DNA of 64,000 nucleotides, taken from the NCBI RefSeq assembly GCF_016026235.1, contig NZ_CP065613.1; one strand, 5' to 3'. A program made the position numbers. Of the stretch, positions 53,101 to 59,100 are shown in pieces (position 1 is the stretch's first letter; each line of letters opens with the position of its first letter). Origin of the DNA: Escherichia coli (lineage in GTDB: Bacteria > Pseudomonadota > Gammaproteobacteria > Enterobacterales > Enterobacteriaceae).

Positions 53101-56100
53101 CCCCCGAACCACGGGTGCAAAGCCATTCTGGCTGGCGGGTAGCATGTCGTTATCAGTATAGAGACGCGCGCCGCGGATTTGCGTACTGTCGAATATATCA
53201 CTCGCCGTCCACGTATCGCCGATCATAATCTGGCTTCTTAACGCAGCAATATCGCGCTGTAACCAGGTGCTGATGGAGTTGTATTCCGCACGACCATCGG
53301 TGGTGTTTAACGTGCTGTAATTGCGTAATCGCCACGGTCCAATATTTAGCCCATTGCGCAGATTGAGATAGCTTGTATTTGTCTCTTGTGATCCATAATC
53401 CGAACGGAGAGTATGCGAACCAGAAAAATCGTAGTTGATGGTGAGCGCATTAACCCCCTCATCCCAACGCGTGGGGCTTATATAATCGTAAGCCATCGCG
53501 TCCATGTAGATTTGGGGAATAGATATATTCAGCTGAAGTTTATCACTGTCCAGTTGCCAGGATGAACCTTCAATACGTGGCGCAGGATCCAGACAGACCG
53601 TTTCATCCACCCCATTGAGCGATTTCAGTGCATCAACTTTTACCCCAAAGGAGGTCAATGTCTTTTTAATGGCAACAAAACAGGCATGCAAATCAGAATC
53701 GGGATTATCCTGAACAAAGGTAACATCCTGACGTTCAAACATTTTCCCGTTAATAAAAATATCAACGCTATAGACGCCGGGAGGAATCAAGTTTGCCCGG
53801 TTAAACTGGCGAATATCTACCCCTGATTGATGGTCAATTTCCAGTAGCGCCGGATTGAACACACTGACCTCGGCCATAAGGCTTTGCGAGAAAATCAGAA
53901 ACGTCCCCGCCGTCAGCCCAACCGCAATTCTGGTCGTAACCATAATACGCCTATCCTTATGCAATGCTTACAGCGGCATTTTTATCGGTTCGCTTACTGC
54001 ACCGTAATCATTAATAAATCGCCAAATCATTTGGCTGCCCGCAGAGTTAGCAGGCAGGGGTAAAGTGAGCGTTTCAAAAGGACGGATCATATTGAGAGGC
54101 ACATCATGGCCATCCACTATGACATCCATCACGCTGATATGAATCGGGTTGGGATTCTCTGCAATTAAGTTTCGCCCTTCTCGATGCCACTTCACTTTCG
54201 GTGCGGCATCTTCGGGAATCAGACGAATGCTTGCCGGTCGCCAGAACAGTTTGATTCGCGTTTTGACAGCGATTTCCAGCGAGTTCTCTGCTTTGTTGCT
54301 TGCAGAGGGTGGAATATTTTTAATATTCAGCCAAAAAACAGACTCACGATCCTCAGGTAATGACACACCTTTGGTGTGAATAATGCGTAATACTTTTTCT
54401 TGCGCAGGTTCTAACCGCGAAACCGGAGGAATAACCGTAAATGGCGCTTTGTTTTTATCATCTTTATTAAAAGGATCCACCCATGCCTGTATGAGATAAG
54501 GGATTTTTTCTTCCTTACTAAATACAGAAATAGATTTATCTGAGTTATTACACAAGTAAACAACTCGTGTACCACCAATGACAACACCTGCATAAGTTAA
54601 TACTGGTTGACCTAAAAACAGGCTAAATATAACAGCGATAAATAATTTGTACCACATGGTTGTTTTAAAGAGCCTCATTAAACAACTTTTTCTGGACATA
54701 ACGACTCCCTAGCCAAAGCCAACTGAATAAAAAGGCCCTTGATAAATTATTTCTTATATTCGATGGTAAATTGTGAATCAGCGTTCGCCGTACCCGCCGT
54801 TACGGTCGCATTTGTTGCAACATAGCGTGCGATAAACTTCATTTCAGCAGTGCCATCAGCTTCGATAGCGGTATAGGCGGAATCGTTATAGAGTTTAACC
54901 TGAGAATTATCGGACTGGTTAAAAATACGAATACCTACGCCAGTAGCAACTATTGCAGCTCCTGTGCCAGTATAATCACCCGGATCGCTTGCAGTAATTG
55001 GTGTACCTACTTTCAGGTCACCGTCTCCGCCAGGCGCTTCAGTACCATCGAAACGAACGGCTGCCTGAGTATAGGTTGCCGGACATTTTTCCAGTTTAAT
55101 ACTAAATTGTTGTGGTGATGCCATACTTCCTACCCCGGAAAATGCACTTTTGCTGACCTTACCAAGTGGAACAGTTTGATCGGCGGTATCTGAGGTAACT
55201 TCACAAGTACTGTCGACTATTTCACCAACAAAGTGAACAACACCATCCTCTGCGAGTGCATGCCCAGCCAGCATTAAAGATGCCAGCGTGAATGCACCGC
55301 CAATAATATTACGCTTCATAGAAACTCCATTGATATGATATATCCTTTACCATGAATCATCACTTATATTAATAAGTGTATTTTTGATTCAAAGGAATAG
55401 TACACCAAAGAGACGGCTTTATCTAAAAATAATATTAATTACGCAAAAATAAAATATAAATTTATTGTTTAAATATTATTTAAACAGTAAAAAATCAAGT
55501 TTGTTATCAGACATTAATGATAATTCAGAATATATTTATATAGAAAGATAGATGAATTTATTGATGTCAGTTATAAAAAAGGGCCACCGGTCGGCAGTAA
55601 TGCCGATCAGTTAAGGATCAGTTGACCGATCCAGTGGCTGTGTAAGAATCCGGAAACGCTCACTTGTTTCCGGATTTTTTTATGCACATTGGACAGGCTC
55701 TTGATCTGGTATCCCGTTACGATTCTCTGCGTAACCCACTGACTTCTCTGGGGGATTACCTCGACCCCGAACTCATCTCTCGTTGCCTTGCCGAATCAGG
55801 TACTGTAACGCTACGCAAGCGCCGTCTTCCCCTCGAAATGATGGTCTGGTGTATTGTTGGCATGGCGCTTGAGCGTAAAGAACCTCTTCACCAGATTGTG
55901 AATCGCCTGGACATCATGCTGCCGGGCAATCGCCCCTTCGTTGCCCCCAGTGCCGTTATTCAGGCCCGCCAGCGCCTGGGAAGTGAGGCTGTCCGCCGCG
56001 TGTTCACGAAAACAGCGCAGCTCTGGCATAACGCCACGCCGCATCCGCACTGGTGCGGCCTGACCCTGCTGGCCATCGATGGTGTGTTCTGGCGCACACC

Positions 56101-59100
56101 GGATACACCAGAGAACGATGCAGCCTTCCCCCGCCAGACACATGCCGGGAACCCGGCGCTCTACCCGCAGGTCAAAATGGTCTGCCAGATGGAACTGACC
56201 AGCCATCTGCTGACGGCTGCAGCCTTCGGCACGATGAAGAACAGCGAAAATGAGCTTGCTGAGCAACTTATAGAACAAACCGGCGATAACACTCTGACGT
56301 TAATGGATAAAGGTTATTACTCACTGGGACTGTTAAATGCCTGGAGCCTGGCGGGAGAACACCGCCACTGGATGATACCTCTCAGAAAGGGAGCGCAATA
56401 TGAAGAGCTCAGAAAACTGGGTAAAGGCGATCATCTGGTGAAGCTGAAAACCAGCCCGCAGGCACGAAAAAGTGGCCGGGACTGGGAAATGAAGTGACAG
56501 CCCGCCTGCTGACCGTGACGCGCAAAGGAAAAGTCTGCCATCTGCTGACGTCGATGACGGACGCCATGCGCTTCCCCGGAGGAGAAATGGCGGATCTGTA
56601 CAGTCATCGCTGGGAAATCGAACTGGGATACAGGGAGATAAAACAGACGATGCAACTGAGCAGGCTGACGCTGAGAAGTAAAAAGCCGGAGCTTGTGGAG
56701 CAAGAGCTGTGGGGTGTCTTACTGGCTTATAATCTGGTGAGATATCAGATGATTAAAATGGCGGAACATCTGAAAGGTTACTGGCCGAATCAACTGAGTT
56801 TCTCAGAATCATGCGGAATGGTGATGAGAATGCTGATGACATTGCAGGGCGCTTCACCGGGACGTATACCGGAGCTGATGCGCGATCTTGCAAGTATGGG
56901 ACAACTTGTGAAATTACCGACGAGAAGGGGAAGGGCCTTCCCGAGAGTGGTAAAGGAGAGGCCCTGGAAATACCCCACAGCCCCGAAAAAGAGCCAGTCA
57001 GTTGCTTAACTGACTGGCATTACACCGGTCGGCAGCCCTTTTTTATCTATGATAGTGATTACTCAACCGTAACCGATTTTGCCAGGTTACGCGGCTGGTC
57101 AACGTCGGTGCCTTTGATCAGCGCGACATGGTAAGCCAGCAGCTGCAGCGGAACGGTGTAGAAGATCGGTGCAATCACCTCTTCCACATGCGGCATCTCG
57201 ATGATGTGCATGTTATCGCTACTTACAAAACCCGCATCCTGATCGGCGAAGACATACAACTGACCGCCACGTGCGCGAACTTCTTCAATGTTGGATTTCA
57301 GTTTTTCCAACAGTTCGTTGTTCGGTGCAACGACGATAACCGGCATATCCGCGTCAATCAGCGCCAGCGGGCCGTGTTTCAGCTCGCCTGCAGCGTAGGC
57401 TTCAGCGTGAATGTAAGAGATCTCTTTCAGCTTCAATGCGCCTTCCAGCGCGATTGGGTACTGATCGCCACGGCCCAGGAACAGCGCGTGATGTTTGTCA
57501 GAGAAATCTTCTGCCAGAGCTTCAATGCGTTTGTCCTGAGACAGCATCTGCTCAATACGGCTCGGCAGCGCCTGCAGACCATGCACAATGTCATGTTCAA
57601 TGGAGGCATCCAGACCTTTCAGGCGAGACAGCTTCGCCACCAGCATCAACAGCACAGTTAACTGAGTGGTGAATGCTTTAGTGGATGCCACGCCGATTTC
57701 CGTACCCGCGTTGGTCATCAGCGCCAGATCGGATTCGCGCACCAGAGAAGAACCCGGAACGTTACAGATTGCCAGCGAACCAAGGTAACCCAGCTCTTTC
57801 GACAGACGCAGGCCCGCCAGGGTATCCGCGGTTTCGCCAGACTGTGACAAGGTGATCATCAGGCTGTTACGACGCACGGCAGATTTGCGATAGCGGAATT
57901 CAGAGGCGATTTCGACGTCGCACGGAATACCTGCCAGCGATTCAAACCAGTAACGGGAAACCATACCGGAGTTATAAGAAGTACCACAGGCGAGGATCTG
58001 AATATGCTCAACCTTCGACAGCAGTTCGTCGGCGTTCGGTCCCAGCTCGCTTAAATCAACCTGACCGTGGCTGATGCGCCCGGTAAGGGTGTTTTTGATC
58101 GCGTTCGGCTGTTCGTAGATCTCTTTCTGCATGTAGTGACGGTAAATACCTTTATCGCCCGCGTCATATTGCAGATTGGATTCGATATCCTGACGTTTTA
58201 CTTCCGCGCCAGTTTTATCGAAGATGTTTACCGAACGGCGAGTAATTTCCGCAATATCGCCCTCTTCAAGGAAGATAAAGCGACGGGTCACCGGCAGCAG
58301 CGCCAGCTGGTCAGAAGCGATAAAGTTTTCGCCCATACCCAGACCAATCACCAGCGGACTACCAGAACGTGCCGCCAGCAGGGTATCCGGGTGACGGGAG
58401 TCCATGATCACTGTACCGTACGCACCACGCAGTTGCGGGATAGCACGCAGAACAGCCTCACGCAGAGTACCGCCCTGTTTCAGCTCCCAGTTCACCAGAT
58501 GGGCAATTACTTCGGTGTCTGTTTCAGAAACGAAGGTATAGCCACGCGCTTTTAACTCTTCGCGCAGCGGTTCATGGTTTTCGATGATGCCGTTATGCAC
58601 CACCACAATGTGTTCAGAAACATGCGGATGCGCATTCACTTCTGAAGGTTCACCGTGGGTCGCCCAGCGAGTATGAGCAATACCCGTACCGCCATGCAGA
58701 GGATGTTCTTCCGCTGCCTGAGCCAGCATCTGGACTTTACCGAGGCGACGCAGGCGGGTCATATGACCTTCCGCATCAACAACGGCCAGACCGGCAGAGT
58801 CATATCCGCGGTATTCCAGACGACGTAAACCTTCAAGAAGGATTTCTGCTACATCACGTTGCGCGATCGCGCCAACAATTCCACACATAGTTTTTGATTC
58901 CGATTTATATCGTTGTCGGTCAACCTGTATGCCCGTTTTTTCGGGCGCCCCGAGCCTTGTAGAGAGTGGGGTTATTTTTATAGTTACTGCTTGTGGGAGG
59001 GAGATTATGTTATCTCCTCATCCCAGATGACCGGATTACCCGGCCAGAATTACTTTTTCTTTACCGGACGACGCCAGCCTTCTTTCTGAGTCTGCGGCAC

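Follow-up and report, generated by a model that had tools for sequence, protein, structure and literature searches.

The IS4 copy of Escherichia coli K-12 (insG, 1426 bp, NC_000913.3 4502090-4503515) has a transposase of the single-ORF DDE/YREK type, terminal repeats that match at 16/18 positions and target duplications of 11-13 bp. An IS4 insertion in the attenuator terminator of pheST was reportedly described by Mayaux et al. in 1984, in Gene 30:137, where AAA-N20-TTT is said to have been proposed as the target consensus. A full-text literature search retrieved no paper on an AAAN20TTT consensus with IS4; the nearest literature support for a target consensus comes from PMC2266710, and one passage of De Palmenaer et al. 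is counted in support of a target preference. The terminal inverted repeats of IS4 are 18 bp long, with ends starting -AATR (PMC2266710, Table 1). Tobes and Pareja (2006, PMC1525189) describe IS1397, IS621 and ISRm22, which have REP elements or other palindromes as their targets. Tn7 inserts at attTn7 in the transcriptional terminator of glmS (Gay et al. 1986, cited in PMC2918618), and the TnsD-binding site at +23 to +58, inside glmS, is its sole requirement (Mitra et al. 2010, PMC2918618).

The window analysed here is a stretch of 64,000 nt from an E. coli genome (assembly GCF_016026235.1, contig NZ_CP065613.1). It carries IS4 immediately downstream of glmS. The locus is best described as a cut-and-paste insertion of IS4 in the intrinsic glmS terminator, at a recurrent site, with a frameshifted copy, a relocated point of termination and a usable attTn7; we give this account as a whole a probability of about 0.85. 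The element and its behaviour are already known, and the finding is real but ordinary. The insertion is made up as follows.

55585-55597: left copy of the 13-bp target-site duplication, CACCGGTCGGCAG
55598-57022, plus strand: IS4, 1425 bp, defective copy; transposase on the plus strand, convergent with glmS
55598-55615, plus strand: left inverted repeat of IS4 (IRL), 16/18 match with IRR
57005-57022, plus strand: right inverted repeat of IS4 (IRR)
57023-57035: right (glmS-proximal) copy of the 13-bp target-site duplication, CACCGGTCGGCAG
57059-58888, minus strand: glmS, 609 aa (TIGR01135, 898 bits)

The identity of the element is confirmed by 99.5% nucleotide identity to the K-12 copy and by a match to NCBIfam NF033592. 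The terminal inverted repeats, TAATGCCGATCAGTTAAG and TAATGCCAGTCAGTTAAG, have the predicted length of 18 bp and the -AATR start of the IS4 subgroup in PMC2266710; they are imperfect, with 16/18 positions matching, and the K-12 copy has the same end sequences. The direct repeat is perfect, as predicted, and flush with both ends of IS4, with a chance probability at fixed positions of ~4^-13. IS4 characteristically duplicates 11-13 bp of its target, roughly one turn of the helix; the duplication is 13 bp here and 11-13 bp at 15 other insertions. The repeat end GGTCGGCA is complementary to TGCCGATC of IRL, a feature that is absent at other IS4 targets and was treated as a coincidence.

The order at the junctions is A6 (55575-55580), GGGC (55581-55584), left repeat, IS4, right repeat, CCC (57036-57038) and T6 (57039-57044). 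When IS4 and one copy of the repeat are removed the sequence becomes A6-GGGCCACCGGTCGGCAGCCC-T6, that is A6-N20-T6, starting 21 nt after the glmS stop codon (57059-57061); the duplicated target takes up +24 to +36 nt, where the original prediction had placed it. On the glmS (minus) strand the 20-mer forms a stem of 8 bp, two of which are G-U, capped by a GACC loop (-13.5 kcal/mol), giving a GC-rich stem-loop downstream of the stop codon with U6 after the stem, while the plus strand reaches only -8.2 kcal/mol. RNA folding is thus stronger on the glmS strand, in agreement with the proposal that IS4 lies inside a terminator-like hairpin formed with G-U pairs on the glmS transcript. The reconstructed hairpin is supported, at the level of sequence, as the predicted, strand-specific rho-independent terminator of glmS, of which two separated parts are left in the window.

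55575-55584, minus strand: displaced distal part of the terminator; read on the glmS strand, the outer 3' stem arm GCCC and U6, and on the plus strand A6-GGGC
57036-57044, minus strand: proximal part kept beside glmS, A6 and GGG of the 5' stem arm

Comparison with strains that lack IS4 at this position bears out the reconstruction. Over 413 nt the empty site matches the chromosomes of E. coli strains 600468, DS26-1 and d1-58 with 100% identity, and at least 80% of it is covered in 1915 complete genomes. The site is also empty in FDAARGOS_943, which is the closest relative of the window locus in the collection.

The window element differs from the K-12 copy by six substitutions and a 1-bp deletion. 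Its length is 1425 bp and not the 1426 bp of the K-12 copy, a difference overlooked in the original prediction. The deletion divides the transposase gene, which is unsplit in K-12.

56462-56466, plus strand: A5 run, A6 in intact IS4; site of the 1-bp deletion and frameshift
55682-56497, plus strand: N-terminal transposase fragment, with 263 native residues before the reading frame shifts and runs on to TGA
56494-57009, plus strand: C-terminal transposase fragment, InsG residues 272-442, with the YREK/E motif region

Both fragments match NF033592, with amino acid identities to the InsG-type protein of 99% and 98%. Because one A is lost from the A6 run, the transposase is cut before the catalytic E/YREK region; the Y-2-R-3-E-6-K motif (YSHRWEIELGYREIK) is present, but in a separate frame past the frameshift. 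A single uninterrupted DDE transposase ORF is therefore lacking, and the split by frameshift makes the element a pseudo-copy of IS4 rather than a member of a different family. The A would have been lost after the insertion, and the copy should be mobile only if another IS4 supplies transposase.

Each end of IS4 contains an inward-facing hairpin.

56985-57018, minus strand: terminator-like hairpin at the right end, 11-bp stem, AAGC loop, then UCUUUUUC (-18.7 kcal/mol, z = -4.75)
55644-55686, plus strand: hairpin and T7 run, upstream of and overlapping the transposase start at ATG 55682 (-22.8 kcal/mol, z = -7.1)

The right-end hairpin is on the glmS-sense strand, from 57018 to 56985, which corresponds to 41-74 nt past the glmS stop codon, and is followed by an interrupted U-tract. 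Since it begins only 5 nt inside the glmS-side end of IS4, termination of glmS is probably relocated by about 50 nt to the IS4-borne hairpin and not lost. In this model transcription would stop at the hairpin and U-tract just inside IRR, and the 3' UTR would be longer by about 50 nt. The left-end hairpin probably keeps read-through from outside IS4 away from the transposase gene or masks the ribosome-binding site of that gene, as suggested by its position and predicted folding; inward hairpins guarding the transposase from read-through are a general phenomenon in PMC2965389.

Disruption of glmS termination, as originally predicted, is correct for the native hairpin, which is split, but it did not take in the replacement terminator that is predicted in IS4. 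An unlikely alternative is that IS4 abolishes termination altogether, so that glmS transcripts enter IS4 antisense to the transposase and perhaps continue beyond it, with changes in glmS mRNA stability and lpf expression and impairment of attTn7. The split of the native 8-bp stem agrees with this, as only GGGCUGCC-GACC-GGUG stays beside glmS and is without a U-tract, but the hairpin 5 nt inside IS4 is stronger than the native one (-18.7 versus -13.5 kcal/mol), has a U-rich tail and lies on the same strand. The left repeat copy and the displaced distal part also form a weak, residual 5-bp stem with a T-run (T6) at the far junction, before the lpf region (minus strand, 55597 to 55584).

The effects on attTn7 and lpf that abolished termination is supposed to have can be judged from the sequences themselves. 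For attTn7 two features are relevant, the second of which was positioned from the centre of the Tn7 duplication in strain AH01 (57036) and the numbering in PMC2918618.

57034-57038: position of the 5-bp Tn7 target duplication AGCCC, as in strain AH01; intact in the window
57059-57094, minus strand: putative TnsD-binding site, attTn7 +23 to +58, comprising the glmS stop codon and the last 11 codons

Strain AH01 has a genuine Tn7 (tnsABCDE, class 2 integron) in the identical terminator allele, and both the Tn7R and the Tn7L junction were found. The Tn7 ends flank AGCCC at +21 to +25 after the glmS stop codon, in accordance with a TnsD sequence in the 3' end of glmS and insertion about 20-25 bp downstream with a 5-bp duplication. 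This duplication has 2 bp in common with that of IS4 (57023-57035), which places IS4 beside the canonical Tn7 insertion point, as had been proposed. The window itself is without Tn7. The suggestion that IS4 might alter the Tn7 target is not supported: the window and AH01 are identical in the glmS 3' end and in the next 25 nt downstream, which include the Tn7 duplication site, and the TnsD site alone is required (PMC2918618). Because of this identity with a Tn7-occupied allele and the published requirements, attTn7 should still be usable, which argues against impairment. The 20-bp hairpin is thus a target of both transposons, but Tn7 is directed there by TnsD bound to a site within glmS, whatever the sequence into which it inserts, whereas IS4 appears to read a terminator-like target, and the duplications are of 5 bp and 11-13 bp, respectively.

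The lpf-O113 fimbrial operon is located between glmS and pstS in the E. coli lineage of the window.

54747-55319, minus strand: first gene beyond the terminator, for a fimbrial major subunit of the lpfA-O113 type

Separation of the fimbrial promoter from glmS read-through, which had been attributed to the insertion, was already provided by the intact terminator. The AT-rich region upstream of lpfA is untouched by IS4, and the fimbrial usher gene lpfC has a premature TAG; lpfC being a pseudogene already, altered lpf expression is not favoured as a consequence of IS4. An outward IS4 promoter toward lpfA was considered and dropped, since a simple scan of the minus strand at 55200-57300 found no promoter-like site.

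Insertion of IS4 in the glmS terminator was found in only 6/5426 complete E. coli genomes, a collection with roughly 10,900 IS4 places in all. The window, E10 and STEC17-190 have identical flanks and a common 13-bp duplication. Strains 21AR0303 and RMDEC465 have CGCCGGTCGGCAG and CGCCCGTCGGCAG, respectively, in both repeat copies, and the empty allele of the former is found verbatim in strain H9. In CUVM3 and CPww7 IS4 is inverted and the duplication is 12 bp. Judged from these alleles, the glmS terminator has been hit by IS4 independently at least four times and in both orientations; for the window, E10 and STEC17-190, independent insertion is indistinguishable by sequence from shared ancestry or recombination. 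That all copies go back to a single ancient insertion, passed on by descent or recombination without any hot spot, is very improbable. The identical flanks and shared duplication in the window, E10 and STEC17-190 would be expected from it, but even here 12 positions and an indel distinguish the IS4 copy of E10 from that of the window. It also does not account for three terminator alleles, each marked by a variant that both repeat copies share and one of which is uninterrupted in H9, for the opposite orientation with a 12-bp duplication in two genomes or for the empty site in the nearest relative of the window locus. An origin of the direct repeat and hairpin by chance, or by faulty assembly at a repeated element, has in its favour only that IS copies are generally prone to misassembly and can be dismissed, as the two 13-bp copies are identical and directly adjoin the IS4 ends, the empty site is verbatim in independent genomes and the junctions are identical in independent complete assemblies.

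Recurrent insertion at glmS can be compared with the target preference of IS4 elsewhere. The mechanism best supported is that IS4 picks targets consisting of an A-run, a short GC-rich palindrome and a T-run, which are bidirectional rho-independent terminators. Staggered cuts 11-13 bp apart are centred on the hairpin loop, and, as the sequences show, repair leaves a copy of the loop and inner stem on each side of IS4. The glmS terminator of the window allele fits the A6-N20-T6 form exactly, and by comparison with sequences at other loci the site is a typical IS4 target.

In 11 distinct IS4 loci with both flanks, a sample of top BLAST matches to a query including flanks and so biased toward terminator-like flanks, a T4+ run begins 0-4 nt after the duplication in 10/11 and A and T runs are both present in 7/11, against backgrounds of 2.6% (one arm) and 0.07% (both arms). 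At eight of these loci folding predicts a hairpin of -9.6 kcal/mol or lower on at least one strand (seven on the strand as listed). The unbiased samples consist of 17 left flanks and the K-12 site only. The 17 flanks were obtained by exact match to the IS4 left end across genome contigs, irrespective of flanks, and are mostly from contig-end copies of Kosakonia oryziphila, which provide the left flank but lack the right end; 9/17 have an A4+ run at a distance of 13-18 nt from the IS end, compared to a 3% background (P ~5e-10). The K-12 site is a poor match, with AAA-N20-TTT only and no hairpin, in contrast to the near-perfect terminator in the window. Because the A-run is absent at 3/11 loci (rcdA, IS66 tnpA and the cspG region), the rule of A-run and T-run is a preference and not a requirement. 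Most IS4 sites are between convergent genes (tynA/feaB, pdxK/crr, htpX/yebQ and rraA/zapB).

The A6-N20-T6 of the window matches the AAA-N20-TTT reported for the pheST attenuator, with the duplication likewise centred in the stem-loop; the gene is a different one, and the glmS case adds recurrence, both orientations and natural isolates. IS4 resembles IS1397, IS621 and ISRm22 in that a structured and repeated class of extragenic palindromes, and no fixed sequence, is the target; the targets of IS4, however, are unique terminators flanked by A and T runs and not REP elements.

A broader and tentative idea, for which we consider the odds somewhat less than even, is that IS4 is a terminator-swapping element that recognises bidirectional intrinsic terminators and replaces the destroyed one via the inward hairpins at both its ends. 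If so, insertions would be nearly neutral, and the repeated hits at the terminators of glmS, accA/ldcC, pdxK/crr and tynA/feaB as well as the persistence of a dead IS4 copy at glmS would be explained. The glmS terminator of the lpf-O113 lineage would then be a landing pad common to IS4 and Tn7, which are mechanistically unrelated.

The practical interest is modest and current knowledge is unchallenged. The locus is a natural illustration of IS4 homing to terminator hairpins and of one 20-bp hairpin targeted by two unrelated transposons. An annotation of the locus should mark this IS4 as a pseudo-element with a frameshift and place the glmS 3' end inside IS4. For the engineering of IS4-bearing strains, attTn7 should remain available to mini-Tn7, and PCR from glmS to lpfA or pstS gives a product 1.4 kb longer when IS4 is present. 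The lpfC pseudogene had raised the suspicion of a Shigella source, but no other IS-sized disruption was seen in the rest of the window, which has the ordinary gyrB-dnaA-yidC-tnaA-pst-lpf-glmS-atp gene order.

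The element in the probable glmS terminator is IS4, and reading of 55300-57300 together with a repeat search confirmed the layout given in the original prediction.

Features of the insertion site, with the method or model identifying each
55575-55580, A6 (sequence reading)
55581-55584, GGGC (sequence reading)
55585-55597, CACCGGTCGGCAG, left copy of the 13-bp duplication (repeat search)
55598-57022, IS4, 1425 bp (sequence reading and repeat search)
57023-57035, CACCGGTCGGCAG, right copy of the 13-bp duplication (repeat search)
57036-57038, CCC (sequence reading)
57039-57044, T6 (sequence reading)
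57059-58888, minus strand, glmS ORF (TIGR01135, 898 bits)

Since the glmS stop codon is at 57059-57061, the duplicated 13 bp lies +24 to +36 nt past the stop. The terminal repeats are present but imperfect, with 16 of 18 positions identical, and were thus not quite the 18-bp inverted repeats described. The element was correctly named: compared with the K-12 copy, an annotated mobile element, it has six substitutions and lacks one base, and both halves of its coding region match NF033592, the NCBIfam IS4 transposase model. The window copy lacks one A in the run at 56462-56466, which is a full A6 in three 1426-bp IS4 copies that occupy this site in other strains. Because of this loss the reading frame of the 442-aa transposase is broken: an N-terminal part of 263 residues soon runs into a stop, and residues 272-442 stand in a separate frame that contains the YREK/E motif; the window copy is therefore a pseudo-element.

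With the IS and one of the two repeats deleted, the reconstructed empty site (413 nt) matches three complete E. coli chromosomes at 100% identity, and at least 80% of its length is covered in 1915 of 5426 genomes. FDAARGOS_943, which has the nearest relative in the collection of the window allele of lpf, the lpf-O113 type fimbrial operon (3 differences over the 2523 nt of lpfC), carries the site uninterrupted as A6-GGGCCACCGGTCGGCAGCCC-T6. The proposed empty-site sequence is thus found verbatim in strains without IS4 at this position. The gene order is pstS, lpfDCBA(O113), [IS4], glmS, glmU, atp. On the glmS strand the 20-mer folds, as predicted, with G-U pairs: its 8-bp stem contains two of them, the loop has 4 nt, the folding energy is -13.5 kcal/mol, and U6 comes next. 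The other strand has C-A and A-C mismatches in place of the two G-U pairs and folds at only -8.2 kcal/mol. The reconstructed hairpin and U6 are what the glmS intrinsic terminator would be expected to look like.

Disruption of glmS termination had also been proposed, and this probably holds for the native hairpin only. The sequence left beside glmS is GGGCUGCC-GACC-GGUG, and the native terminator is broken because GCCC-U6 is separated from this remaining stem, being shifted 1438 bp off. A replacement hairpin with a U-tract is, however, predicted just inside IS4; the terminator scan found, on the glmS strand 5 nt inside the IS end, GCCAGUCAGUU-AAGC-AACUGACUGGC followed by UCUUUUUC, with a folding energy of -18.7 kcal/mol (z = -4.75). 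Judging from this structure, glmS transcripts are predicted to stop near 56985-56992, some 50 nt farther downstream than at the empty site. The left IS4 end has a mirror-image hairpin and T7 just ahead of the transposase ATG (-22.8 kcal/mol), in keeping with what is generally described for IS elements, whose 5' terminators stop read-through from outside (PMC2965389).

IS4 was found within the glmS terminator in 6 of 5426 genomes. E10 and STEC17-190 have flanks in common with the window, 21AR0303 has CGCCGGTCGGCAG on both sides of IS4 (its 67-nt empty allele is found verbatim in strain H9), RMDEC465 has CGCCCGTCGGCAG on both sides, and in CUVM3 and CPww7 the element is reversed, with a 12-bp duplication. 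Because each allele's own variant stands in both repeat copies, the insertions arose separately, in four events at least, and the glmS terminator is a seldom occupied but recurrent IS4 hot spot. The E10 copy (6199-7624 of its locus, L001) differs from the window copy (55598-57022) at 12 positions and the indel in spite of identical flanks, and the copies at diverged alleles (L002, L003) are nearer to the window copy than the E10 copy is, which suggests either that the insertions were separate or that gene conversion took place between IS copies.

Targets were also rebuilt from IS4 insertions with both flanks in complete E. coli genomes.

Rebuilt IS4 targets
tynA/feaB, A7-cgg-CACCAGGTGCCG-T6
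accA/ldcC, A5-gggt-CACTTCGGTGG-ccc-T6
pdxK/crr, A7-tgg-CGCCGATGGGCG-cca-T5
htpX/yebQ, A5-gcgc-GTCCTGATCGACG-cgc-T7
rraA/zapB, A6-gg-CACCGCAAGGTG-cc-T6
yeiQ/yeiP, A6-ggga-CAGCCTGAGCTA-tccc-T4

In all six, the loop of a terminator-like hairpin is the centre of the duplication, and most of the sites separate convergent genes. A T-run 0-4 nt past the duplication is found at 10 of 11 distinct IS4 loci and both runs at seven (background in the window 2.6% and 0.07%). This sample is biased, having been drawn from the best BLAST matches to a query with the flanks in it. Because of this bias, flanks were also fetched by exact match inside IS4; an A4+ run lies 13-18 nt from the IS end in 9 of these 17 left flanks against a 3% background (P ~5e-10). 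The K-12 site, picked beforehand, is weak and fits AAA-N20-TTT only, without a hairpin. That consensus was reportedly proposed for IS4 in 1984, and the terminator-type pattern is consistent with it. A passage on the IS4 target in De Palmenaer et al. is likewise in agreement. The T-run (10/11) compared with the A-run (7/11) hints at asymmetric target recognition, in a small and biased sample. Where a target (in L025, L031, L032 and the rebuilt set) has only half of the template, the T-run on the side of IRR, the right inverted repeat, is the half kept.

The IS-less window has only four A4-N14-22-T4 sites with a strong hairpin, the glmS terminator among them. The other three, unoccupied bidirectional-terminator sites at about 16105-16133, 25301-25330 and 60723-60752, are candidate IS4 targets by the inferred rule. 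Across the left junction (55590-55609, plus strand), the end of the left repeat (GGTCGGCA) pairs with the left inverted repeat (TGCCGATC) in a new hairpin of 8 bp, which is absent at the other targets compared and is probably a coincidence.

The insertion was placed exactly right next to the canonical attTn7 position. AH01 carries a full Tn7 (tnsABCDE, intI2-dfrA1-sat2-aadA1) between glmS and lpfA, with an identical terminator allele. Its junctions, ...AAAAAAGGGCT|TGTGGGCGG for Tn7R on the glmS strand and ...GGCAGCCC|TGTGGGCGG for Tn7L on the plus strand, give AGCCC as the 5-bp duplication. This is 57034-57038 in the window, +21 to +25 past the glmS stop, and shares two bases with the IS4 duplication. 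Taking 57036 as centre places the published TnsD site (+23 to +58) at 57059-57094, the stop codon and last 11 codons of glmS. This matches PMC2918618, according to which no further sequence is required. Since glmS through 57023 is unchanged, attTn7 should, judging from the sequence, still be usable, and the suggested alteration of the Tn7 target is unlikely with the TnsD site alone needed.

On the lpf side, the AT-rich stretch upstream of lpfA is intact, the left junction keeps a residual 5-bp stem and T6, and the scan found no outward promoter-like site on the minus strand of 55200-57300. The operon is probably non-functional already because of a premature TAG (from GAG) at codon 467 of the usher gene lpfC (52543-52545, minus strand; gene 51421-53943). 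FDAARGOS_943 has GAG at this codon but IS2 in lpfD; the operon appears to be decaying independently in the two lineages. In the window, lpf (50000-55400) differs from the E10 sequence by about 10%, while the neighbouring stretch (55400-63250), with the intergenic region, IS4, glmS, glmU and the atp genes, is at least 99% identical to it; the locus is a mosaic, probably a recombinant one.

The frameshift, the recurrence at the site, the general targeting of terminators, the predicted replacement terminator carried by the IS and the exact overlap of 2 bp with the Tn7 target go beyond the original prediction. All fit known IS4 and Tn7 behaviour and their novelty is low; IS4 transposase genes next to glmS already figure in RefSeq genome annotations.

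The left junction of K-12 yjgZ/nanX::IS4 recurs exactly in a 265-bp contig of Methylobacterium mesophilicum NBRC 15688 (L005), which is most likely an E. coli K-12 contaminant of that assembly. At least 16 contigs of Kosakonia oryziphila REICA_142 (L006-L021) carry, at or near the contig end, 40 nt identical to the left end of E. coli IS4, which suggests that IS4 has expanded strongly beyond Escherichia. Four Rfam matches in the window are those expected for this chromosomal region.

Rfam matches at the gathering threshold
5977-6049, ROSE_2 thermometer
16181-16223, ES036
21700-21780, AsdA antisense RNA of dnaA
60504-60661, STnc410 sRNA, between glmU and atpC
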